Source: a virus. Taken from it: 34,986 nucleotides of DNA. Position numbers and translations under genes: made by a program. Each line of letters starts with the position of its first letter. Position 1 is the first letter of the stretch. The notes beneath the pieces were generated by a model, which saw only the letters and a program-made list of their open reading frames with translations, ran no database searches and had not been told where the DNA came from. Shown here one piece after another: positions 6,746 through 24,838 of the stretch. The DNA lies in the IMG/VR virus record IMGVR_UViG_3300001765_000193, one strand, 5' to 3'.

Positions 6746-7084
6746 TTAATTATTTGATTCATATAATTTTCGTAAATCTTTTAAAAATGCTGTTTGATAT
6801 TGTGAACCGCAGGTTTTGCAACTTTCAGTTTTAATATTAAAAACTCTTAACCATATTTTCTCGGCTTTCTCAATATCTTTAACTTTATCAATTGGTATTG
6901 GTAAACCATTATACCATTCAAATAAATCTTTTAAAAACTTAATTTCTGACTTTGTAAGCTCCGATGGTTTGCTAAAAGGGAATAATCTATTTAAAGTATC
7001 TTTTCGTTTATTACAACTCTCGCAAGGTTCAATTCCAATTGCTTTAGTTACATTTGCTATTACGTCTCCTAATCCTTTAGCCAT
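6746..7084 (-). CDS. Hypothetical protein with two CxxC pairs, 112 aa
   Basis: GLGDVIANVTKAIGIEPCESCNKR and CKTCG motifs, suggesting a zinc-ribbon-like fold. Confidence 0.5.
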   Translation of the reverse strand: MAKGLGDVIANVTKAIGIEPCESCNKRKDTLNRLFPFSKPSELTKSEIKFLKDLFEWYNGLPIPIDKVKDIEKAEKIWLRVFNIKTESCKTCGSQYQTAFLKDLRKLYESNN

Positions 7085-7545
7085 ATCTTATGTTTTATTT
7101 TTTTTAAACCTCTATATAAAATAGAATATTCTATTCCTGTTTTCTTTGACAAATTTGATATACTCGTTCCTTTTATAACTTTTACAATTTCGTTATTTTC
7201 ATTAGTAATTACTTTACCAAAAATAGCATCGATTAAAAGTTGCTCCCACTTGGTTAAATTTTTAATTTCAAATTCAATAGGTTTATCATTTTCTTGAATT
7301 ATATCTGCAAAGTCATCAACTAATACTATTCTATTTTTAGTAAGGCTTTTTTTCTTTGTGTCGATCCAAACCGATTTTATTGTAAAATATATATAAGCAT
7401 CGTTTACATCTTCATACTTTTTCCCGCTTTCGTGAATTTTAATGTACGCATCTTGCAATATATCATTTGCACTATCTAAATCGCCTGTAAAATTATAAGC
7501 GACTTGTAATAATTTCGCTTGATGTTTTACAAGTTTTTCGAGCAT
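7069..7545 (-). CDS. Divergent sigma-70 family (ECF-like, regions 2+4) factor, 158 aa
   Basis: Region-2-like LDSANDILQDAYIKIHE...YIYFTIKSVWIDTKKK. Region-4-like HTH ISNLSKKTGIEYSILYRGLKKIKHKI. Sits at the early/late boundary. Confidence 0.55.
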   Translation of the reverse strand: MLEKLVKHQAKLLQVAYNFTGDLDSANDILQDAYIKIHESGKKYEDVNDAYIYFTIKSVWIDTKKKSLTKNRIVLVDDFADIIQENDKPIEFEIKNLTKWEQLLIDAIFGKVITNENNEIVKVIKGTSISNLSKKTGIEYSILYRGLKKIKHKIWLKD

Positions 7546-9865: not shown

Positions 9866-9909
9866 AATGTAATTTTTAATTTATTGTTTTTTAGTTAGTT
9901 AACCCAAAA

Positions 9910-10104
9910 ATGACAAATGACAAAATATTTTTTACAGAGTTTAAATATAAATCATATATTTCATTTTATGTATAAATAATAAATAATGTAATACTATATA
10001 TAGTTTAAACCATATATTTTATGTCATTTTGTAATTTATAGGTTTATATATTTAAAAATCAAATAATTAACCAATGACAAAATCAATGACAAAGAATGAC
10101 AAAA
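9910..10104. repeat. Iteron cluster (ATGACAAA) flanking an extremely AT-rich core; putative replication origin
   Basis: Direct copies at 9910, 9917, 10074, 10086 and 10096, and an inverted copy at 10021-10030. Lies in the 250-bp ORF-free gap just after the primase-helicase gene. No TAnnTTTG box is present. Confidence 0.45.
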
Positions 10105-10116
10105 ATTACATTTTTA

Positions 10117-12279
10117 TTAATCTATTTTTTGAGTATATAAGCAATAACCTCTCATACTTTTACCAAATTTAGTATAACTTTTATTTTCAAGTTTATTTTT
10201 AACAATAATATCTTTAACATCATATTTTGTGACCACAAAATTTGCAACACCATTTAAAAAATTTAAAATTTGTCCTTGACTTAAAATAACCTCAACTTCA
10301 AAAAATTCATTTCTTTCAATAGAAAAATTTTCAAAAAACAGGTCTTCAACTGGCATATTTTCTATATTCTTTGTGGTTTCTTTTTCTAAAAATTCAACGT
10401 CATCATTAGAAAATATTTTCCAATCAAACCCATCTTTATACATTTGATACGCTTCTAACCATAAGTTAGTAGTATTTAATGAAATTAAGCGGTTATAATC
10501 AATCTTCTCTACATTGATAGGCAATATACGTCTATTTCCTGTTACGTCTTTTAAAACGTCTCTTTCGTTACTTGTTCCGCATAAACTTGCACGTCTTTTT
10601 AATTTAGCATAATAACTTGAATAAGGTAAACGAATGTCCACCATATTTGTATCAGCTACTTTTTTAAAGTCTTTTACGTCCTTTGTTGCAAGTCCTCCAA
10701 ACTCGTCATCTAAAACTAATAAACCTTTTACTAAATTATAAATTGAATCTTTATCTTTTACGTCTATTTTGTGTTCTATTAAATATTTTTGTAAACCTGG
10801 AGGCAATAAGTTTCTAAAAAAAGACGTTTTACCAGTTCCTTGTTTTTGACCGCAAAGAACTAAAGTTAACGGGCTTACTTTAGGCTCGTTTATAGGTGCT
10901 AACCAATTATGAATGCACCCAACAATCCACTTTTTAAAAACCCAATTATTATAATTTGATCGTGGTTCTATACAATTAATATAGTCATCTATAACGCTTT
11001 CTGAATTTTCGTGTAACTTTTGTTTAAAAAATTCAGTTAACGGATTAAAAAAAATAGTATGTTCACTATTAATCATATCTCTAACATCTGACTTAGTAGG
11101 AATGAAATCTAAATAATTTTTACAAGCAAAGTAAATAGTGTTCAATTTAACGTCGTCTAAAAGTTTACCATTTATAAAAATTTCATTAGTAATTGTATCT
11201 TTTACTGGATTATAATTTTCAAAAATAAAGTTTTGCAATTTTTTAGAATCGGTTAAATTTTCGTCTAATTGTTTATAATCTTTTTTACTTTCTATTAAAA
11301 ACTTTATAAGTTCGTCATCAGCATCAGTAATGTTATTAATTTTTTCAAGTGATTTTTTTATGCTTTCAATAGTTGGTTCGCCTTGACTTTTAGCAACAGA
11401 AACCCTATTAATAATTGTTTCTGTTTTTTCAGAATACAATTTTAAACCAGCTTCTTTTGCATAATAGTAAATAGTAGATATTGAAACTGCTCCACTTCCT
11501 TTACAGAAGTTTTTATAATGTTTTTCTATTTTTGAACTATCATATTTTGAGCCATATTTACAAATAGCATCAAAGTAAGTAAAACCACTTTCACCAAATT
11601 TAGAAGCTATACCAAACCCTATTCTAACATATCGGTCGTAATCATCTTGACAAAGGTCAATCTGTTTTTCTTGAATTTGTGATAAAATAGTTTGAAAGTC
11701 ATCATTTACGAAAACGAAATTATGAACTTTCTCTTTTTTAATTACTTGTTTTGCTATAAACTTTTTAGAGTTTTCATTTAAAAATAAATAAGGGTCGTAT
11801 GATATAAATCTAAGTCTATTTTTATTTTTGCAACTCGGGTCAATTGCTACATTAAAATTGTCCCAATAATATTGAGCAAGTTCATTAAAACTTTCTAAAA
11901 ACTTATTCGGGTTTATTTTAACGAAAACACAAAGTCCATCGCCACCAAAAGACCGATGCGACATCATTGTATATTTGTCTAAATTAATTTGATTAAGCAA
12001 TTGTAAATCCACATCATCATCAATATCAATTACAATTAATCCGTTTAACTCTTCTATATTATCAGCGGTTTTACTTCCATTTTTCATAACTGCCGAACCT
12101 GTTATGCAGGGTGCTTTTATTTTGCATTGATTATAAGCGTCTTTATCGTTTTTTAGCGAACGTGCTTTTAGTACCAAATCTTGGTAAGTTCCTTTTTGCA
12201 CCATATCGATATAATCTTGAATATCAATATCAATTTTATCAATACTTTTTGCGGTTGGGTATTTACTGAATTTTATCAT
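10117..12279 (-). CDS. Primase/helicase-type replication protein (VirE_N/BT4734-like N-domain, PriCT-like middle, VirE/D5-like P-loop NTPase), 720 aa
   Basis: LNGLIVIDIDD; DDYDRYVRIGFGIASKFGESG (PriCT-like); Walker A CGQKQGTGKTSF; Walker B LLVLDDE. Confidence 0.7.
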   Translation of the reverse strand: MIKFSKYPTAKSIDKIDIDIQDYIDMVQKGTYQDLVLKARSLKNDKDAYNQCKIKAPCITGSAVMKNGSKTADNIEELNGLIVIDIDDDVDLQLLNQINLDKYTMMSHRSFGGDGLCVFVKINPNKFLESFNELAQYYWDNFNVAIDPSCKNKNRLRFISYDPYLFLNENSKKFIAKQVIKKEKVHNFVFVNDDFQTILSQIQEKQIDLCQDDYDRYVRIGFGIASKFGESGFTYFDAICKYGSKYDSSKIEKHYKNFCKGSGAVSISTIYYYAKEAGLKLYSEKTETIINRVSVAKSQGEPTIESIKKSLEKINNITDADDELIKFLIESKKDYKQLDENLTDSKKLQNFIFENYNPVKDTITNEIFINGKLLDDVKLNTIYFACKNYLDFIPTKSDVRDMINSEHTIFFNPLTEFFKQKLHENSESVIDDYINCIEPRSNYNNWVFKKWIVGCIHNWLAPINEPKVSPLTLVLCGQKQGTGKTSFFRNLLPPGLQKYLIEHKIDVKDKDSIYNLVKGLLVLDDEFGGLATKDVKDFKKVADTNMVDIRLPYSSYYAKLKRRASLCGTSNERDVLKDVTGNRRILPINVEKIDYNRLISLNTTNLWLEAYQMYKDGFDWKIFSNDDVEFLEKETTKNIENMPVEDLFFENFSIERNEFFEVEVILSQGQILNFLNGVANFVVTKYDVKDIIVKNKLENKSYTKFGKSMRGYCLYTQKID

Positions 12280-13921
12280 AATATTGTTTTAATTTTTCTT
12301 TAAGTTTTGATTTTAAATAAACTAAAGTTCTATTGCTTTTACTTGGCAAACCATTGAAAATTTTAATAAATGGTTCTCCTAAGATACGATTAATTTTTTT
12401 GTCAAATTGTCCGTTTAAAATGGATTTTTGATAGCTTCCAAAAGTAACTTTATTTTTTACAAATAAATCAAAAGTTTGATTAATTAATATTTTAAAAGCA
12501 AAATTAATATCCTCGTTTATTGATTGAACATACTTTATAATCTTTTCGCCACTTGGGTATATTTGTTTAACTTTAACTGCTGTTATTTTATTTGTAACTA
12601 TTTCAACTTCCTTTTCTTCAACTTCAATTATAGGTTCTTCATAATTACAACTTGGACAATTTTTTTCAGATTTCATTTTTAAAAAACCACAATTTTTGCA
12701 CTCATTAATATCGTCCAAACTTTCTTTTAATTGTTTTGGAGGTTTTAATCCGTTAAAAAATATCTTTTCCCAATTCCTTGTTTTGTCAGACCACATTCCT
12801 AAGCGGTCTGAATTTCCGCCACCATCTATAAAAATAAATTTATCTTTAAATATCTTTTTAGTAGATCTTGCACCTCGTCCAGCAATTTGTATAAATAATG
12901 ATAATGATGCGGTGGGTCGTGCCATAATAATAGCTTCTACATCGTCAACGTCAAACCCTTTAGTGAAACAAGAAACGTTTAATAGTATTGCATCACGTTC
13001 ATTTTCAAACCAACGTATCAAAGGTTTTCTTTCGTTTTTTTGGTTGTTAACAGAATCATACATTTTTACGTTGTAGCCTTTCTCTTTAAACATTTCATAA
13101 ATCAAAAGATTAACTTTAGTTGATGCTGTGAAAATCATTGTTTTTTTACCTAAACAAAGCTGTTCGTAATTATGTAAAATATCAATTTGCACTTCTTCTT
13201 TTTCGTATGTTTGAGCAATTGATTCGGCTGTAAATTCTCCACTACTATCGGTTTTTAAATTTTCGGTATTTACTGAAATTGAATATAATTCTTCATCAAC
13301 TAAAAAATCATTCTCGATTAAATAATCAATTCCAACTCCTACTACAATATCATCATATACATCGGACATCGTTTCTTCTTTAGTCCAAACTTTCAATTCA
13401 TAACCGCAGTGTTCAACTTTTTCAAGTTCTGGAACGAATGGTAACTCGGTATTACATTCATTGCATTTATAAAATTTAGTTCTTTTTAGTCTAACTGGGG
13501 TTGCTGTGAAACCTATTATTTTGCAATCAATAACGTAATCAAAAATTTTGTTAAAAATCCAAACGTGTGCCTCATCGATTATAAGATAATTAAAGCGTTC
13601 GATTAAATTAGTTTTTTTTTGCAACCTATTGAATAAAGTTTGAGCCATCGAAACCACTACTTTATTATTCGGGAATATTTTATTTTTGCTTTCAAAAGTA
13701 GCTACATCAACTCCTTGTTTTAAAAAAGTTTTATAAGTTTGAGTAACCAAGTCTTCACTATCCACTAAAATTAAAACATCGGTATTTAGTTGTTTTGTTA
13801 ATTCGGTAAAAATAACGGTTTTTCCTCCGCCTGTTGATAATTGAACGCATAATTTATTTACGCTTGGTAGCTTAAATAATATTTGTTCAAGTTGATTTTG
13901 TTGATATGTCCTTAATTGCAT
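12263..13921 (-). CDS. SF2 DEAD/DEAH-box DNA helicase with Zn-ribbon inserts, 552 aa
   Basis: Motif I LSTGGGKT, motif II IIDEAH, motif III FTATP and motif VI QIAGRGAR. CxxC pairs at CNECN...HCG and CKNCG...CPSCN. Confidence 0.85.
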   Translation of the reverse strand: MQLRTYQQNQLEQILFKLPSVNKLCVQLSTGGGKTVIFTELTKQLNTDVLILVDSEDLVTQTYKTFLKQGVDVATFESKNKIFPNNKVVVSMAQTLFNRLQKKTNLIERFNYLIIDEAHVWIFNKIFDYVIDCKIIGFTATPVRLKRTKFYKCNECNTELPFVPELEKVEHCGYELKVWTKEETMSDVYDDIVVGVGIDYLIENDFLVDEELYSISVNTENLKTDSSGEFTAESIAQTYEKEEVQIDILHNYEQLCLGKKTMIFTASTKVNLLIYEMFKEKGYNVKMYDSVNNQKNERKPLIRWFENERDAILLNVSCFTKGFDVDDVEAIIMARPTASLSLFIQIAGRGARSTKKIFKDKFIFIDGGGNSDRLGMWSDKTRNWEKIFFNGLKPPKQLKESLDDINECKNCGFLKMKSEKNCPSCNYEEPIIEVEEKEVEIVTNKITAVKVKQIYPSGEKIIKYVQSINEDINFAFKILINQTFDLFVKNKVTFGSYQKSILNGQFDKKINRILGEPFIKIFNGLPSKSNRTLVYLKSKLKEKLKQYYDKIQ

Positions 13922-13933
13922 AATTAAATAAAA

Positions 13934-14031
13934 GAGAAAACCCTCGAACTCGATGCACTACTATCGGTTGAGGGTTTCTCATTTACATTGCTATTGCAAC
14001 GTTATAATTTAAGTCGGTAGTGCTTCGACTT
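13934..14031 (-). ncRNA. Structured 5' leader A: short hairpin plus long bipartite hairpin with complementary loops
   Basis: Long hairpin 13934-13980 has about 18 bp with 3 bulges and the 8-nt loop gcactact. Short hairpin 14011-14031 has a 6-bp stem and a 9-nt loop. Loops pair 13955-13961 (gcactac) with 14017-14023 (gtagtgc). Confidence 0.55.
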
Positions 14032-14033
14032 CA

Positions 14034-14041
14034 CAAAACTA
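14034..14041 (-). promoter_or_regulatory. Bacteroidota-type -7 box TAGTTTTG
   Basis: Plus strand reads caaaacta, with a TTTG 18 nt upstream on the minus strand. The leader hairpin starts 3 nt downstream. Confidence 0.5.
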
Positions 14042-14042
14042 C

Positions 14043-14075
14043 AAAAAAAATCCGAACTACAAAGCAATTCGGATT
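14043..14075 (-). terminator. Rho-independent terminator after the recombination operon
   Basis: Stem AUCCGAA/UUCGGAU followed by U8 on the minus strand. Confidence 0.7.
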
Positions 14076-14083
14076 AATTTTTT

Positions 14084-14359
14084 TTAATTAATTTTCTCTA
14101 TTTTCCAGCCTTTTATTGAGTTAAAATATTTTGTTTCGCCCTGTGGATTAACCCACTCTCGACCTCCTACATTAATTGAAACTTTAACATCATCACCAAT
14201 ATTATAAAAATCTAATAAAGCGGTTTTATCTTGAGCAAATTCAATTATTATTGTTTGTATATATTGTTCATTAGTTGCTATAACTAATTCTCTCTTTTTG
14301 TATGATGCACTTACTTCTTGAACATCACTAATTACTTTAATTTTACCGATTAATTCCAT
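14084..14359 (-). CDS. DUF3127-family OB-fold (SSB-like) protein, 91 aa
   Basis: MELIGKIKVISDVQEV...ELVIATNEQY...FAQDK...GDDVKVSINVGGREW...NSIKGWKIEK matches the DUF3127 pattern common in Bacteroidota. Confidence 0.7.
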   Translation of the reverse strand: MELIGKIKVISDVQEVSASYKKRELVIATNEQYIQTIIIEFAQDKTALLDFYNIGDDVKVSINVGGREWVNPQGETKYFNSIKGWKIEKIN

Positions 14360-14967
14360 TGTTTATTTTTGTTTATTAAGTTAATATATTCTAATTTAAT
14401 TTCTATTACTTCTTTTAAACGTTCTTTAATTTTTTCAATCATTTCTTCATCACGTTCAACTATAATTTCGTGATAATATTCTGTGCCATTGTGAACTAAA
14501 TAATTAAAAAAATAGGCTTTATCTCTATTTGTGCATAACATTTGCATTTGCATTTGTGCATAATATTTAGTGTCGATTTCATTTGTAGCAACCAATTTAA
14601 AAAAAGTAGTTGACTTCGGACATTTAATTTCTAAAATTGCATTATCAGAAACCAATCCGTCAGGACTTGCTCCAGCGTGTTCTTGGAATGTAAAAAAACC
14701 ACATTTTTCAACTTCTAAAAATTCCAATCCTTTTAATTCTTTAAACTTTGCAAAAGCTAAGGGTTCTGTATCAATTCCGGTTTGCATATCATAAGAAATA
14801 TAACTCTCTTCAAATTCTCCGTATAATTGTTCAATAGCTTTTTCAATAGCATAAGTTTTGCCAGTTTCACCAAGTCCACGAACTCCAAGTATTTTAATAA
14901 TTTCACTTGCAGTAAATTTACCGCACCTATCTTTTAACCAACTTTCTGTTCGTTGTAATTGTTCCAT
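14350..14967 (-). CDS. YqaJ-like (lambda Exo-type) recombination exonuclease, 205 aa
   Basis: QRTESWLKDRCGKFTASEI N-terminal signature plus the SPDG...LEIKCP PD-(D/E)xK core. Confidence 0.8.
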   Translation of the reverse strand: MEQLQRTESWLKDRCGKFTASEIIKILGVRGLGETGKTYAIEKAIEQLYGEFEESYISYDMQTGIDTEPLAFAKFKELKGLEFLEVEKCGFFTFQEHAGASPDGLVSDNAILEIKCPKSTTFFKLVATNEIDTKYYAQMQMQMLCTNRDKAYFFNYLVHNGTEYYHEIIVERDEEMIEKIKERLKEVIEIKLEYINLINKNKQWN

Positions 14968-15464
14968 AGTTTTTCAATTTCAGGTGTTAATGTATATTTC
15001 ATTTTAATTTGTTCAATTGTTGCATTGGCTTTTTTTGCACTCTCAAAATTAGCTTCTGTAAAGTTTGGTTTTACTTTATTTAAAATTGGTTGTATTGGTT
15101 TGATACGAACTCCGTCTGTAATTGCTCCCATCATTTTTACATTTCTATCAACATACAATTCAATATTCATGCCCTTCCAATTTTCTATAATATGACATTC
15201 TTTACCTATTAATCCGTCTTTTTTTGCAAACCCAGCCAATATTTTATTATTAGTTGAATTTAGTTTTAATGGTTTAATAGGTTCTACAAAATAGCAAAAA
15301 ATGCCGTCTTGTTTAGTTCCTGAAACATCAACTCCTTGTTCATACTTTACTTCTTTAATAGTAAAAATTAAAGGCACTCCGTCTGTTTCCATAGCATCTA
15401 AATCAGCACTCGCAAGGTGTGTAGATTTTCGATACTTTCTCCAATCTGTTTTTTTATTTTCCAT
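14934..15464 (-). CDS. Hypothetical protein, 176 aa; first gene of the recombination operon
   Basis: Minus-strand ORF that overlaps the exonuclease gene. No motif I can name. An annealing or SSB role is a guess from position only. Confidence 0.3.
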   Translation of the reverse strand: MENKKTDWRKYRKSTHLASADLDAMETDGVPLIFTIKEVKYEQGVDVSGTKQDGIFCYFVEPIKPLKLNSTNNKILAGFAKKDGLIGKECHIIENWKGMNIELYVDRNVKMMGAITDGVRIKPIQPILNKVKPNFTEANFESAKKANATIEQIKMKYTLTPEIEKLWNNYNEQKVG

Positions 15465-15478
15465 ATTTTAAAAAATAA

Positions 15479-15560
15479 ACCTCTTTTAAGAAACTTAATC
15501 GGCTAGAATTAAGCGTTAAAAGAGGTGTTATAAATTTGTGAAAGTCCCTAGCCGAACTTT
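15479..15560 (-). ncRNA. Structured 5' leader B (same architecture as A)
   Basis: Long hairpin 15479-15526 has an 11-bp outer stem, a 6-bp inner stem and the 8-nt loop cggctaga. Short hairpin 15541-15560 has a 5-bp stem and a 10-nt loop. Loops pair 15500-15506 (cggctag) with 15548-15554 (ctagccg). Confidence 0.55.
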
Positions 15561-15568
15561 TTGATATG

Positions 15569-15576
15569 CAAATATA
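15569..15576 (-). promoter_or_regulatory. Bacteroidota-type -7 box TATATTTG
   Basis: Plus strand reads caaatata. The leader hairpin begins 7-8 nt downstream. Confidence 0.45.
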
Positions 15577-15587
15577 ACTAAATTAAA

Positions 15588-15752
15588 TTAATAAAATACA
15601 TTTTTTTTAATTATTTCTGTATTATATTTTTCAAAGCATTGTTTAGGTTTCAGTCTTGCCCAAAACATTTCAAATATAAATATTTGTTTTCCTGTTCTTT
15701 TGCAGTGGAATGTATATCCACTTACTTCTCTTTTAAATTCTCTGTATTTCAT
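15588..15752 (-). CDS. Hypothetical small protein, 54 aa (below cutoff)
   Basis: Hand translation MKYREFKREVSGYTFHCKRTGKQ...KKNVFY. The ATG lies 1 nt after the methyltransferase stop. Confidence 0.45.
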   Translation of the reverse strand: MKYREFKREVSGYTFHCKRTGKQIFIFEMFWARLKPKQCFEKYNTEIIKKNVFY

Positions 15753-15753
15753 T

Positions 15754-16404
15754 TTAAAAAAGTTTTGTTTGTGAAATATGATTTTTTACTCTTTGTATTC
15801 CTTTGTCGTAGTATTCCTTGTCAAGTTCACAGCCAACCAATTCAAATCCATAATCGTGGCACGCTATTGCAATACTCATCGACCCTAAATGCGTATCGAG
15901 TATTTTATCGCCTTGCTTGGCGTATTTATTTAGAATAAACTTATATAAGTCAATTGGTTTTTCAGTTGGATGTATTCTATCACTTCCGTTATTTGCATTA
16001 GCACCAACCCAAGATTTAAAAAATTTTCTTATAGAACCATTAAAAGAAGTCCACGCTAATTCTCCATCAGCATAAGAATTATCTCCAGTACCTTTATCCC
16101 AAAATAACCAACATTGAGAATTTTCTAATAAATTAGAAAAATAATTTCCACCCCAAATAATTTGATTTTTTGATATTCTTTGTAATTCTTTAAAATAATC
16201 TTTAGATGGAATTGATTTATCCCAATCATTTTCTCTAAAATCTATAGTTTTAATTTTGGAAGTTCCGTTTTTAAAGTTTTTACTTCCAGCACCAATCCCA
16301 TAAGGCGGGTCAACAATAGCCAACTCGAAATAATTATCAGGATAACGTGCCATTAGTTGCATATTGCATTCGTTTGTCAATTCTATTTTATCTGTTAGTT
16401 TCAT
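15754..16404 (-). CDS. N6/N4 DNA methyltransferase (N6_N4_Mtase family), 216 aa
   Basis: Motif IV IVDPPYGIG, then HPTEKPIDLY, then motif I-like DTHLGSMS. Paralog of 20698-21417. Confidence 0.8.
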   Translation of the reverse strand: MKLTDKIELTNECNMQLMARYPDNYFELAIVDPPYGIGAGSKNFKNGTSKIKTIDFRENDWDKSIPSKDYFKELQRISKNQIIWGGNYFSNLLENSQCWLFWDKGTGDNSYADGELAWTSFNGSIRKFFKSWVGANANNGSDRIHPTEKPIDLYKFILNKYAKQGDKILDTHLGSMSIAIACHDYGFELVGCELDKEYYDKGIQRVKNHISQTKLF

Positions 16405-16406
16405 AA

Positions 16407-17249
16407 TTAGAATAGTGTTTCTTGACTTTTATTAATTAATGTTTTAGCAAATCCAAATTCTTCTATATCTTTTAATTTTTGATACTCTTCATTTATCCAA
16501 TTTTCGGCATTTTTATGAAATGGTTTTTTAATTTCAAACCCAAAACATTTTCTTTTTAATTCTTGCCCGGCTATTAAAGTTGAGCCACTACCCGCGCAAG
16601 GGTCTATAATTACGTCTCCTTCATCCGTAAAAATTTCAATTAGTTTTTTCAAAACTTTTAATGGTTTTTGAGTAGGGTGCAATTTTTCAATATTTGCATC
16701 ATCACGTTCCCAATCCAAGCAATTAAAAATCATTTTACCTTTGTTATTAAATTTTGGCAAACGATCACGATAAAATATTAAAGCATATTCGCAGTTACCT
16801 ACTACTTTCATATTTGCTTTTAAAACTTGTGCCGAAAAGTTTTTACGAAATACTAAATTTATATAATTTTTCAATCCGTATCTTTTAGCTAATTCAATTA
16901 AATACATTTGTTGGTCGAATGCACAAAAAACAATCATACAAGGTGCATCGCCTTTTTGTCTTGGTTCTCCATCTTCTGACTTTTTTGGTTTAGTTTCTGC
17001 TTTTAGCATTGTGCTACAAAAGTGCATAAATTCTGCTGGTCTAAAATCTTCATCGGTATCAAAGAAACTTTTACCAGCTAATTCACTTTCTCCATTTGCA
17101 TTGTCTCCGTCTTTATACCACGCTGGGTTTGATGCGTATGCGTTGTTTCCTAAATTATAAGGAATATCCGCAATTATTAATTGTGCTTTCGGAATCGCAT
17201 ATGTTTTGAAATTCTGAAAATGGTTATTAAATATTTGTGCTTTTTTCAT
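16407..17249 (-). CDS. N6/N4 DNA methyltransferase (beta-class order), 280 aa
   Basis: Motif IV variant IADIPYNLG, HPTQKPLKVLKKLIE, motif I DPCAGSGST. Confidence 0.8.
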   Translation of the reverse strand: MKKAQIFNNHFQNFKTYAIPKAQLIIADIPYNLGNNAYASNPAWYKDGDNANGESELAGKSFFDTDEDFRPAEFMHFCSTMLKAETKPKKSEDGEPRQKGDAPCMIVFCAFDQQMYLIELAKRYGLKNYINLVFRKNFSAQVLKANMKVVGNCEYALIFYRDRLPKFNNKGKMIFNCLDWERDDANIEKLHPTQKPLKVLKKLIEIFTDEGDVIIDPCAGSGSTLIAGQELKRKCFGFEIKKPFHKNAENWINEEYQKLKDIEEFGFAKTLINKSQETLF

Positions 17250-17270
17250 AAATATTTTTAAAATTTAAAA

Positions 17271-17344
17271 CCCGATTAAAGCAAAGTAAGGCATTTGCTA
17301 AAATCGGGGATTATTAATGTTTTATTAGACCGCCTTACTTGTCT
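17271..17344 (-). ncRNA. Structured 5' leader C (same architecture as A and B)
   Basis: Long hairpin 17271-17308 has a 7-bp outer stem, a 6-bp inner stem and the 8-nt loop gtaaggca. Short hairpin 17327-17344 has a 4-bp stem and a 10-nt loop. Loops pair 17286-17292 (gtaaggc) with 17332-17338 (gccttac). Confidence 0.55.
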
Positions 17345-17348
17345 GTTG

Positions 17349-17375
17349 CAAAGATATAAAAATTATTTTAATTAA
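17349..17375 (-). promoter_or_regulatory. -7 box TATCTTTG plus one upstream TTAATTAAAATAAtT unit
   Basis: Plus strand reads caaagata at 17349-17356. A 15-nt unit at 17361-17375, 4 nt from the box, matches 14/15 nt of the tandem units at 19981-20014 and 24377-24410. Confidence 0.5.
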
Positions 17376-17387
17376 AACAATTTTTTT

Positions 17388-17621
17388 TTAAAATATTATT
17401 TTAACTAAAAACAAACCTACAATTGCACCGCAACCAGCTCCGAGAGCATAGGTTAATTTTTGATTAGTAGTTGAAACGCTGATTTTTGATACATTAAACG
17501 CCCACAGCAACGAAATTGTAAACGATGCTATAAATATACCAATCCAATTTAATTGAGTGATAAAATACGTGTTTATAGCAACCATTCCGATTTGTATAAA
17601 CGATGTTAGAAATGTTTTCAT
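17388..17621 (-). CDS. Small integral membrane protein (3 predicted TM), 77 aa
   Basis: Almost entirely hydrophobic: IQIGMVAINTYFI, IGIFIASFTISLLWAF, ALGAGCGAIVGLFLVKIIF. Confidence 0.55.
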   Translation of the reverse strand: MKTFLTSFIQIGMVAINTYFITQLNWIGIFIASFTISLLWAFNVSKISVSTTNQKLTYALGAGCGAIVGLFLVKIIF

Positions 17622-19968: not shown

Positions 19969-20014
19969 CAAATCTATAAAACTTATTTTAATTAAAAAAA
20001 CTTATTTTAATTAA
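19969..20014 (-). promoter_or_regulatory. Early promoter: -7 box TAGATTTG preceded by two tandem TTAATTAAAATAAGT units
   Basis: Plus strand reads caaatcta at 19969-19976. Units lie at 19981-19995 and 20000-20014. The 34-nt block is identical to 24377-24410 with the same 4-nt offset to the box. Confidence 0.55.
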
Positions 20015-20032
20015 AAACGTTATTTATAATGA

Positions 20033-20697: not shown

Positions 20698-21417
20698 CTA
20701 AAACAACCGCAGTTGTGATTTAAAGTCATTAAAACGTTTTTCTTGTTTGTCATAATATTCTTTGTCTATTTCAAACCCTACAAAGTTGAACCCGCCTTTA
20801 TACGCTGCAATCCTACTGCTTCCACTTCCTAAATGTGTATCTAAAATCAAATCATTTGGCTTTGCATAGTTTGATAAAAGCCAGTCGTATAGTTTGGTTG
20901 GCTTTTGCGTTGGGTGTATTTTTATATCTCCGCAGTTAATATAAGCATCGGCTCTGCTATATCCAAATACTTTAAAAGTATTGATGCTTGTTTTTGCAAA
21001 TTCACCTTCCTTAAAATTTCCGCTTCCTTTTTTATACCAAACTATTACTCCTTCTAAATGTAAATTGTGAAAATAATTTCCACCCCATACAATTTGATTT
21101 TTAGATACTCTTTTTAGTTCGGAAAAATATTCATCTGTTGGCACTTCATTATCCCAATTTGTTTGATGATACTTTTTATAAGTTCCAGCATTTTTAGTAA
21201 ATCCTTTTTTGCCCCCTAAATCGTTTTGAGTTAAATCGGCATTTATCCCATAAGGCGGGTCAACTATTGCCAAATCAAAATGATTATCGTTAAATCGTTT
21301 TAATGCCTTTACACAATCTTCCAAATAAACCTCCGAAGTAGGCACTGCTGGTAACAGCGGTTTTGTGCTATTGCCTGTTTCTGGCTTAACTGAAAGTTCG
21401 TTTATATCTTCAAACAT
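20698..21417 (-). CDS. N6/N4 DNA methyltransferase, 239 aa (start moved to MFEDINEL)
   Basis: IVDPPYGIN, NQIVWGGNYF, HPTQKPTKLYDWLL, DTHLGSGSS. The start choice is supported by a repeated leader also found in front of the ASCH-like gene. Confidence 0.8.
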   Translation of the reverse strand: MFEDINELSVKPETGNSTKPLLPAVPTSEVYLEDCVKALKRFNDNHFDLAIVDPPYGINADLTQNDLGGKKGFTKNAGTYKKYHQTNWDNEVPTDEYFSELKRVSKNQIVWGGNYFHNLHLEGVIVWYKKGSGNFKEGEFAKTSINTFKVFGYSRADAYINCGDIKIHPTQKPTKLYDWLLSNYAKPNDLILDTHLGSGSSRIAAYKGGFNFVGFEIDKEYYDKQEKRFNDFKSQLRLF

Positions 21418-21488
21418 CTGTCTTAAATTTAAAGTTAGTGTGTGTTTTATCGGCAACAGCACAAAGCCACAAAACGTTAGCATCAAGA

Positions 21489-24364: not shown

Positions 24365-24410
24365 CAAAAATAATAAACTTATTTTAATTAAAAAAACTTA
24401 TTTTAATTAA
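24365..24410 (-). promoter_or_regulatory. Early promoter: -7 box TATTTTTG preceded by two tandem TTAATTAAAATAAGT units
   Basis: Plus strand reads caaaaata at 24365-24372. Units lie at 24377-24391 and 24396-24410 and are identical to 19981-20014. Confidence 0.55.
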
Positions 24411-24440
24411 TTTTTACTATTTATATTGATTATAAATAAA

Positions 24441-24466: not shown

Positions 24467-24780
24467 AAATAACTTTACAGAATTTACACTGCATCTCGAC
24501 TTTAGAAGGGTCGTATTTTAAACTTAAACTAAAAGTTATAAGATTTCGTTCTTTTAAACGGAATTACACAGCCATTCTTAATGTTGCATTATTCAAATTA
24601 ATAACGTTGTCGGTTATTTTTTTTTAGCTCTCGATATTACTTACTTATCTATTGTCAAAGCCAAGCACCCCCAAAATATTCCGAATGTTCGGACACTTAT
24701 CAAACATAAACGTTTTGCGTTGTGGAGGTGGTGGGAGTCGAACCCACGTCCAAATAGATTTCATTAATACGTCAACGAAC
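24441..24780 (-). ncRNA. ssrA: Circularly permuted (two-piece) tmRNA-like RNA: acceptor piece then coding piece
   Basis: 24759->24723 reads AUCUAUU-UGGAC-GUGGG-UUCGACU-CCCAC-CACCUCC-A. 24672->24647 reads GGGGGUG-CUUGGCUUUGAC-AAUAGAU. The acceptor stem pairs fully with G3:U70, the P2 strands are exact complements, and there is no ORF in the unit. Confidence 0.6.
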
Positions 24781-24785
24781 TTTTA

Positions 24786-24801
24786 CAAAGATACAAAAAT
24801 A
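24786..24801 (-). promoter_or_regulatory. Two adjacent -7 boxes TATTTTTG-TATCTTTG driving the tmRNA-like unit
   Basis: Plus strand reads caaagata at 24786-24793 and caaaaata at 24794-24801, just downstream of the lysis-operon terminator. Confidence 0.45.
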
Positions 24802-24810
24802 TTTTTTAAA

Positions 24811-24838
24811 TAAAAAACCACCCTTTTGAGAGTGGTTT
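24811..24838 (-). terminator. Rho-independent terminator after the lysis cassette
   Basis: Stem AAACCAC/GUGGUUU (24815-24838) followed by a U run on the minus strand. Confidence 0.55.

Follow-up and report, generated by a model that had tools for sequence, protein, structure and literature searches.

The virus DNA analysed here (IMG/VR record IMGVR_UViG_3300001765_000193; its whole length of 34,986 nucleotides (nt) is called the window) carries at 15479-15560 an RNA leader, leader B, that lies between a -7-box promoter and a recombination operon, as the initial annotation of this DNA had proposed. The operon (14084-15464) encodes first a protein of 176 amino acids (aa), for which a PDB sequence search gave no match, then a YqaJ-type exonuclease and a DUF3127 protein, which PHROGs names a single-strand DNA-binding protein (SSB). 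Because all genes of the window are on the minus strand, the leader RNA reads as the reverse complement of the sequence at these coordinates. The initial annotation had also described an outer stem, an inner stem with its apical loop and a short hairpin, had paired the two loops with each other, and had placed the -7 box and the ATG of the 176-aa gene. When checked on the sequence, all of these positions proved correct (Table 1): the loop word CGGCTAG at 15500-15506 of the plus strand has its reverse complement at 15548-15554, and the pairing extends to 8 nt (UCGGCUAG/CUAGCCGA). Counting its complement, this 7-mer has just two copies in the whole window, both of them in leader B.

The transcript presumably starts about 4 nt downstream of the -7 box, as predicted from published knowledge of Bacteroidota promoters. 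The RNA then forms a 5'-terminal hairpin (hairpin 1), an A-rich spacer and a bipartite hairpin 2 (5'-ACCUCUUUUAA c GCUUAA uucuagccga UUAAGU uuc UUAAAAGAGGU-3'), in which a small internal loop (c / uuc) separates the outer stem from an inner stem of 6-7 base pairs (bp), the RNA strand adding one G-C/G-U-type pair. Directly after hairpin 2 comes a U-tract, UUAUUUUUU, which the initial annotation did not mention. Leader B contains no AUG and thus no leader peptide. The minimum free energy (MFE) of its minus strand was -24.6 kcal/mol (z = -4.6), with 0 of 200 shuffled sequences equally stable, and the predicted fold matches this description. Hairpin 1 is weak by itself (-5.4 kcal/mol) and hairpin 2 is strong (-17.6 kcal/mol); the loop-loop helix, computed as an isolated duplex, reaches -14.4 kcal/mol, far above hairpin 1 and near hairpin 2.

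Leader B had been annotated as one of a repeated family, and such a family exists: there are three leaders of this kind in the window and dozens in relatives. The second precedes two DNA-methylase genes and the third a helicase-primase operon; their loop words are unrelated, yet the build is the same. As relatives we used 40 IMG/VR contigs reached through homologues of the 176-aa protein, plus further contigs, most of them metagenomic fragments. In these related phage contigs we counted about 60 distinct leaders, which use about 30 genuine loop words; as many as five leaders stand on a single 9.4-kb contig. Two carriers are cultured phages: Flavobacterium phage vB_FspS_sniff9-1 (Lillamyvirus), with leaders at 12945 and 13982 of MN812229, and Cellulophaga phage phi10:1 (Assiduviridae), with a leader at 10258 of KC821618. 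For bacterial genomes, protein-based scans gave just two metagenome-bin contigs, one of them binned as Flavobacterium sp., and no prophage. A naive scan for kissing loops, made with neither promoter nor tail criteria, returned thousands of AT-rich chance matches and was replaced by stricter descriptors; these allowed G-U pairs on the scanned strand only and required a -7 box, so that leaders behind other promoter types would be missed. A MAFFT alignment of diverse leaders (A1) was out of structural register and was excluded from the pair counts. Two covariance models, R1 and R2, served solely as a kissing-blind detector. They recover many leaders across sub-types, although R2 is contaminated by antisense matches and reaches the methylase leader only at E = 0.28.

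We found no counterpart of these leaders among known RNAs. At gathering thresholds, Rfam 15 (4227 models, riboswitches and leaders among them) gave for the window just a permuted transfer-messenger RNA (tmRNA) and a tRNA-like match; at E <= 10 over 13850-17450 it gave only three chance-level matches, on other sequences or strands. A search of the full-text literature found no description of such a kissing-loop terminator leader. We regard the structure and the leader family as almost certainly real, and the family, of ~80-nt RNA leaders in phages of Flavobacterium-type bacteria, as apparently undescribed. On one contig (L005, at 1123 and 3894), two near-identical leaders with the same 10-nt loop word, AAGUAGUGAG, stand 2.8 kb apart before different genes, the second behind a -7 box that is only near-consensus (TAATATTG); this pair looks like a recent cassette duplication.

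The proposed pairing between the two loops was borne out in that it is preserved by compensatory changes. Complementarity spans 7-8 nt in leader B and 6-10 nt in the ~60 leaders. Among 34 promoter-proximal folds with two hairpins and a T-tail, chosen by MFE with the loops ignored, 11 have loop-loop complementarity of at least 6 nt; swapped-loop and shuffled-loop controls reach this length in 1.2-1.6% of cases, an enrichment of about 20-fold. Similarly, sense-strand matches of the pseudoknot-free covariance models have 6-9 nt of loop complementarity and antisense or spurious matches at most 5, with at least 6 nt in 1.4% of swapped controls. A scan with the stems of leader B, the loops left free, recovered nine near-identical orthologues, all with GGUCAG in loop 1 and CUGACC in loop 2; the window's leader B alone has GGCUAG/CUAGCC, a compensated swap at three positions. 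Across six orthologous leaders of the helicase type, each sequence retains all 8 kissing pairs, 4 of which have changed on both sides, and the whole structure is 97% paired, as against 32-40% when the partners are slid. Together, these results demonstrate that the loop-loop pairing is selected and not due to chance. With loop complementarity of at least 6 nt and compensatory change, the leaders are predicted to form a kissing-loop pseudoknot.

The same data bear on whether the element acts as DNA. The loop words form an inverted repeat about 45 bp apart beside a promoter, as operator half-sites, a cruciform or a chance inverted repeat would. Folding is strand-asymmetric, however: the sense strand folds more stably than the antisense strand in 32/34 leaders (mean difference -4.1 kcal/mol), which indicates G-U pairs on the transcribed strand. 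In addition, the loop words differ between leaders of one genome, so that no common DNA-binding protein could read them. With the enrichment over controls, this makes a DNA-level element or a chance repeat extremely improbable.

A diversity of words on a common scaffold could also reflect a specificity code acting in trans, in which the loops of a terminated leader would bind nascent leaders that share its code, whether of its own phage or of a co-infecting one, and so serve feedback or exclusion (compare P4 CI with seqA-seqB-seqC, P1/P7 c4 and plasmid copy-control RNAs). The ~30 loop words on otherwise similar scaffolds suit such a code, leaders of one contig nearly always differ in word, and a terminated RNA would be stable. 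Against it, the loop helix evolves no faster than the stems: in the helicase-type leaders 4/8 kissing pairs are invariant versus 1/6 hairpin-1 stem pairs, and among the 10 leader-B-type sequences (window plus nine orthologues) one has a different word, while 2/9 orthologues have a different hairpin-1 stem. Cross-pairing within a contig is no rarer than expected at random, and intramolecular pairing would out-compete pairing in trans. We found no convincing extra targets of the loop words in the window, where each word occurs once per polarity save for one likely chance copy; this copy, of the methylase leader's loop-2 8-mer GCCTTACT, lies at 7346 inside a sigma-70-family gene and fits chance. 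We therefore regard a code in trans as highly improbable.

Table 1. Coordinates and composition of the leaders of the window, of a reference terminator, and dimensions of the family. Arrows give the direction of transcription.
Feature	Position	Strand	Remarks
Leader B, -7 box	15576->15569	minus	TATATTTG; Bacteroidota-type promoter box
Leader B, between -7 box and hairpin 1		minus	cauaucaa, read from the sequence
Leader B, hairpin 1 (5'-terminal)	15541-15560	minus	AAAGU-ucggcuaggg-ACUUU; stem 15556-15560 with 15541-15545
Leader B, loop of hairpin 1, 10 nt	15546-15555	minus	5' kissing strand UCGGCUAG, 15555->15548
Leader B, spacer, 14 nt	15527-15540	minus	cacaaauuuauaac; A-rich, single-stranded
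Leader B, hairpin 2 (bipartite)	15479-15526	minus	putative hairpin of an intrinsic terminator
Leader B, outer stem of hairpin 2, 11 bp	15479-15489 with 15516-15526		ACCTCTTTTAA with TTAAAAGAGGT (plus-strand letters); perfect
Leader B, inner stem of hairpin 2	15494-15499 with 15508-15513		CTTAAT with ATTAAG (plus-strand letters)
Leader B, apical loop of hairpin 2	15500-15507	minus	3' kissing strand CUAGCCG(A), 15506->15499
Leader B, U-tract	15478->15470	minus	UUAUUUUUU; directly 3' of hairpin 2, then aaaau, then AUG
Start codon of the 176-aa gene	15462-15464	minus	14 nt 3' of hairpin 2; heads operon 14084-15464
Methylase leader (second of family)	17260-17356	minus	precedes two DNA-methylase genes; ATG 17249
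Methylase leader, -7 box	17356->17349	minus	TATCTTTG
Methylase leader, hairpin 1	17344->17327	minus	AGAC-aaguaaggcg-GUCU
Methylase leader, hairpin 2	17308->17271	minus	followed by UUUUAAAUUUU
Methylase leader, kissing pair			AGUAAGGC/GCCUUACU
Helicase leader (third of family)	13922-14041	minus	precedes helicase-primase operon; ATG 13921
Helicase leader, -7 box	14041->14034	minus	TAGTTTTG
Helicase leader, hairpin 1	14031->14011	minus	AAGUCG-aagcacuac-CGACUU
Helicase leader, spacer, 32 nt			holds a mini-hairpin
Helicase leader, hairpin 2	13978->13937	minus	followed by U-rich tail
Helicase leader, kissing pair			GCACUAC/GUAGUGC
Ordinary operon-end terminator of the leader-B operon	14049-14075	minus	T-run overlaps the -7 box of the next promoter
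Family, start of hairpin 1			median 4 nt after -7 box, about the first transcript base
Family, stem of hairpin 1			4-8 bp
Family, loop 1			median 10 nt
Family, spacer			median 18 nt; A-rich, in many cases with an AAAAYAUUAWWA-like run at its end
Family, outer stem of hairpin 2			median 10 bp
Family, internal loop of hairpin 2			2-3 nt
Family, inner stem of hairpin 2			median 4 bp
Family, loop 2			median 10 nt
Family, hairpin 2 to ATG			median 15 nt; A-rich stretch
Family, whole leader			68-95 nt

Hairpin 2 has the signature of an intrinsic (Rho-independent) terminator: a stable, G/C-based stem with an adjoining U-tract. Its stem base is G/C-rich, the outer stems ending in CC..GG-type pairs with 8-11 nt of T next. 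Across the family the T fraction is 0.47-0.98 (mean ~0.72) at +1 to +11 after the last G/C pair and then ~0.3 with A rising, and 58/61 leaders have at least 5 T in the 9 nt after hairpin 2, no tail criterion having been imposed. The hairpins 2 of leaders reach -16.5 to -17.6 kcal/mol, versus -11.4 to -13.0 kcal/mol for the operon-end terminators of the phage. As a benchmark from this genome for a plain terminator that lacks a kissing partner, we took the one that ends the leader-B operon. Since this ordinary terminator already stands upstream of the helicase leader's promoter, hairpin 2 of the helicase leader would act on its own promoter's transcripts. The interval from hairpin 2 to the ATG has no promoter box, so that expression would need read-through. 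These findings suggest that hairpin 2 probably terminates transcription, and that termination of the strong -7-box promoter's transcripts, ~90 nt downstream, would be partial. The T-run of the reference terminator (AATCCGAAT...ATTCGGATT TTTTTT) runs into the next -7 box, GTAGTTTTG (14034-14075, minus strand), an overlap kept in relatives (L050-L056, about 1330-1400). T-tracts doubling as promoter elements have been described as promoter-terminator coupling (bioRxiv 10.64898/2026.08.19.745784), which fits this terminator and not the kissing leader.

Alternatively, the kissing domain might shield the mRNA 5' end from 5'-end-dependent RNases and keep structured RNA off an open, U/A-rich ribosome landing site, termination at hairpin 2 being negligible or incidental. 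Hairpin 1 does begin at about +1, the ATG follows hairpin 2 within an A-rich stretch (median 15 nt), the domain is compact and very stable, and no antiterminator alternative was found. However, the position of the T-rich run follows the stem base and not the ATG: it adjoins the stem of hairpin 2 even where the ATG is 40-80 nt away. Moreover, a G/C-rich stem base with 8-11 U is in physical terms a terminator, whatever further role it has, and one 5' hairpin would suffice for protection. A stabiliser and translation platform therefore appears unlikely, if worth keeping in mind. Far less can be said for a processing site for RNase III or another enzyme, at which the outer stem, inner stem, kissing helix and hairpin 1 would stack coaxially into a double-stranded-RNA-like substrate whose cleavage trims the leader, as at the inter-gene hairpins of T7. 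The bipartite hairpin has an internal loop, and the combined stack would measure ~30 bp, but internal-loop sequences vary across the family; we give this possibility a very small chance.

The order of elements along the RNA (5' kissing strand, outer-stem 5' arm, 3' kissing strand, outer-stem 3' arm) is that of an H-type pseudoknot in which the lower stem of the terminator takes part. As loop 2 is transcribed before this stem is able to close, the contact could tune closing in either direction. It could, for example, favour passage in the manner of the put sites of HK022, or act as a promoter-selective insulator: the loop-loop helix would form before the lower stem closes, and steric or torsional hindrance, or docking on the polymerase, would let transcripts from the adjacent promoter pass the terminator. 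This order of emergence would suit such self-antitermination, as would the position of the leaders directly after promoters, like put sites, and the failure to find a shared phage factor. On the other side, read-through transcripts from upstream would have the same hairpin 1, and the leaders match no Rfam family in sequence or structure. The median 18-nt spacer is also ample for both helices and does not shrink with stem length; we found no positive correlation between the two lengths across the family. We consider put-like antitermination distinctly unlikely. Because a spacer of 16-21 nt lets both helices coexist, a stable final pseudoknot is favoured over a mutually exclusive switch.

The most probable reading of leader B is that of a promoter-proximal attenuator, to which we give an even chance. 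As such, leader B would be a cis-acting, self-contained RNA domain of ~82 nt with which the transcript of the recombination operon begins. Initiation by host RNA polymerase would take place at the consensus -7-box promoter, and the first nucleotides would form a weak hairpin exposing a loop of 8-10 nt; after the A-rich spacer, the bipartite hairpin and U-tract would constitute an intrinsic terminator 14 nt before the start codon. The upper-stem loop of this terminator would pair with the 5' hairpin loop over 7-8 bp and so form, with the lower stem, a compact pseudoknot. Part of the polymerases would stop, releasing a stable, kissing-locked leader RNA of ~90 nt closed at both ends; the remainder would read through, and only this fraction would express the operon. 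DNA-metabolism and homing-endonuclease genes would thereby be kept low or delayed despite a strong promoter, and promoter plus leader would form a portable cassette exchanged among phages.

In an attenuator of this kind, the kissing contact may set the efficiency or timing of the terminator, or stabilise the RNA. We tentatively suggest, while thinking it rather doubtful, that the contact controls an intrinsic terminator with neither an alternative fold nor a dedicated protein: the 5'-terminal hairpin would capture the terminator's apical loop on emergence and so decide, through kinetics or topology, if the lower stem can close in time. Each promoter would then have a built-in pass/stop signal, tunable by temperature, Mg2+ or host factors and movable between genes.

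Several points weigh against attenuation. Termination at hairpin 2 is predicted from sequence alone. Nascent-RNA folds contain no alternative (antiterminator) pairing and thus lack the usual switch logic of an attenuator: the 5' arm of the outer stem is mostly free, with no conserved pairing that would sequester it, and only the loop-loop helix competes strongly. A terminator stem should still be able to form when its apical loop is paired, and kissing may therefore have no bearing on how efficiently transcription ends. A hairpin at the 5' terminus, together with a U/A-rich stretch ahead of the ATG, would also fit a pure role in stability or translation. Finally, neither R1 nor R2 reached leader B at E <= 1, so that its membership in the family rests on architecture and close orthologues and not on a profile score. 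Two further candidates were rejected. A classical attenuator or riboswitch platform was set aside, mutually exclusive terminator and antiterminator folds having not been found and leader B having no leader peptide; and pairing of the spacer with the start-codon region, noticed on inspection in a few leaders other than leader B, was judged a low-complexity coincidence.

The genes behind the leaders encode SF2/SNF2 helicases, primases, DNA methylases, the 176-aa/YqaJ/DUF3127 recombination set, small unknown proteins, and free-standing GIY-YIG and HNH homing endonucleases. Across relatives, one and the same gene may stand behind a kissing leader or a plain leader of 25 nt, or may lack a promoter altogether, and the leader-B type precedes a different gene in its nine orthologues. 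This indicates that promoter and leader form an optional, exchangeable cassette that modulates rather than enables expression. Free-standing GIY-YIG/NUMOD3 and HNH/NUMOD4 genes often have their own promoter and kissing leader (for example at L020 576, L053 785, L019 5151, L043 3380 and L057 12945), which suggests that the cassette travels with mobile homing-endonuclease genes or holds their expression low.

The initial annotation had raised the possibility that a phage protein binds the leader RNA. This found no support: the three carrier lineages share almost no proteins, and no known antiterminator domain was found. Common to the window phage, sniff9-1 and phi10:1 are methylases and DUF3127 only; the window phage and phi10:1 additionally have YqaJ and the 176-aa protein in common. 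Among the small and medium-sized open reading frames of the phage, Pfam and PHROGs scans found no Q-, N-, NusG- or LoaP-like domain, most early proteins being matchless; the sole regulator recognised was a 158-aa sigma-70-family protein (7069-7545, minus strand; Sigma70_r2, E = 2e-8). As the carriers have so few proteins in common, a dedicated shared phage factor is unlikely, and the partner is more likely to be host machinery (polymerase, NusA, RNases) or the RNA itself. The sigma-70-family gene has the replication genes on one side and those for packaging and structure on the other, and its product is presumably a late sigma factor.

The distribution of DUF3127 is relevant to one further alternative, a protein operator of the T4 gene 32 type, in which a phage SSB or other regulator would nucleate on the 5' pseudoknot, spread over the unstructured A/U-rich RNA and repress translation of DNA-metabolism operons. 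The layout, a 5' pseudoknot and then an unstructured A/U-rich run up to the ATG, would suit it; a DUF3127/SSB-like gene is present in the leader-B operon and behind one sniff9-1 leader, and its product is among the very few proteins common to all three carrier phages. Yet most leaders precede operons with no DUF3127 gene, and the U-tract tied to the stem would be left unexplained. Such an operator seems to us very unlikely.

Compared with known systems, the module works most like a promoter-proximal phage terminator, that of lambda PR'-tR' (6S RNA; StxS in Stx phages, PMC7547250). Both have a constitutive phage promoter followed by a terminator, putative in the leaders, within ~100-200 nt and before an operon, with a short terminated leader RNA as by-product; with a whole length of 68-95 nt, the leaders lie within the ~200 nt from the start that marks lambda Q-type systems. 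Lambda, however, has one such site, before late genes, opened by DNA-loaded Q protein, whereas kissing leaders occupy several sites per genome before DNA-metabolism genes, with no Q-like protein recognised. The terminator loop of the leaders would be locked to a 5' hairpin for which lambda has no equivalent. The put sites of HK022 likewise form two hairpins right after early promoters, act in cis with no phage protein and are conserved in structure rather than sequence. As far as we know, the hairpins of put neither act as terminators nor pair with each other through their loops, whereas the second hairpin of the kissing leaders has a predicted terminator U-tract.

The T4 gene 32 mRNA resembles the leaders in having, on a phage DNA-metabolism mRNA, a 5' pseudoknot and then an unstructured A/U-rich stretch to the start codon. 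Its element is a small H-type pseudoknot on one gene only, has no terminator and is read by gp32; the kissing leaders have a kissing-hairpin pseudoknot that would contain the terminator, on many operons. In the pT181 and pIP501 countertranscript systems and in P4 CI RNA with seqA/B/C, leader loop pairing is also linked to premature termination and complementary words co-vary, but these involve two RNAs or three repeated sites and switch alternative folds. In the kissing leaders both partners are in one leader and no alternative fold was found. Nor was there a repeated target word of the P4 CI type, each word occurring once per polarity in the window (antisense promoters were not examined). Purine and lysine riboswitches share a loop-loop tertiary contact in a 5' leader ending in a terminator; their kissing loops are in the aptamer rather than the terminator and are conserved in sequence, and the leaders have no Rfam riboswitch match and no evident junction or pocket. 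In part, the module thus recalls put RNA, the T4 gene 32 pseudoknot and loop-loop attenuation, and it lacks a defining feature of each.

Other features of the window and its relatives were noted. The early promoters of the window (24372 and 19976) are leaderless and have a different upstream repeat: two direct copies of TTAATTAAAATAAGTTT, 19 nt apart, just upstream of the -7 box (24391-24426 and 19995-20030, minus strand). The methylase-leader promoter has a single copy at about 17375. The repeat is likely a binding site for a regulator of early transcription. This 35-kb phage has three N6/N4 DNA-methyltransferase genes (15754-16404, 16407-17249 and 20698-21486, minus strand), two of which form the operon behind the 17356 leader. 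After some leaders, a third small hairpin stands just before the ATG of a conserved ~70-aa gene (L057 14085-14115; L058 10355-10380; L048 and L043, after GTGAGA-type leaders). Its 4-bp stem co-varies (AGGU/ACCU, CGGU/ACCG, CGAU/AUCG) around a conserved, AAUCUUUAA-like loop, it is common to a Flavobacterium phage and a Cellulophaga phage, and it may be a separate translational element.

The phage further encodes a permuted, two-piece type tmRNA (Rfam tmRNA_permuted, 61.6 bits at 24564-24780), which ARAGORN called at 24473-24813 on the minus strand with the tag peptide DNVINLNNATLRMAV; the Rfam tRNA match at 24469-24538 is probably its tRNA-like part. The gene has its own -7 boxes (24801 and 24793) and is flanked by terminators (24838-24815 and 24466-24441). 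A 250-bp non-coding stretch 3' of the primase gene (9866-10116) holds many direct and inverted copies of TTTGTCATT, is iteron-like, and is probably the replication origin.

To our knowledge, gene regulation in Bacteroidota phages is almost unexplored, and their hosts have no Hfq and make little use of Shine-Dalgarno sequences. The module described here is recurrent and strongly co-varying, ties the first nucleotides of a transcript to the loop of a putative terminator, and is found both in Flavobacterium phages from fresh water and in a Cellulophaga phage from the sea, whose gene contents hardly overlap otherwise. As two carrier phages are in culture with their hosts, Flavobacterium sp. LMO9 for sniff9-1 and Cellulophaga baltica for phi10:1, direct testing is possible. 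The leaders are small and modular and have many loop words that do not cross-pair, and could therefore serve as regulatory parts for Bacteroidota. If they are attenuators, these phages would throttle or time their replication, recombination, methylation and homing-endonuclease genes via host machinery alone, and the leaders would add a terminator design that works without an antiterminator fold.

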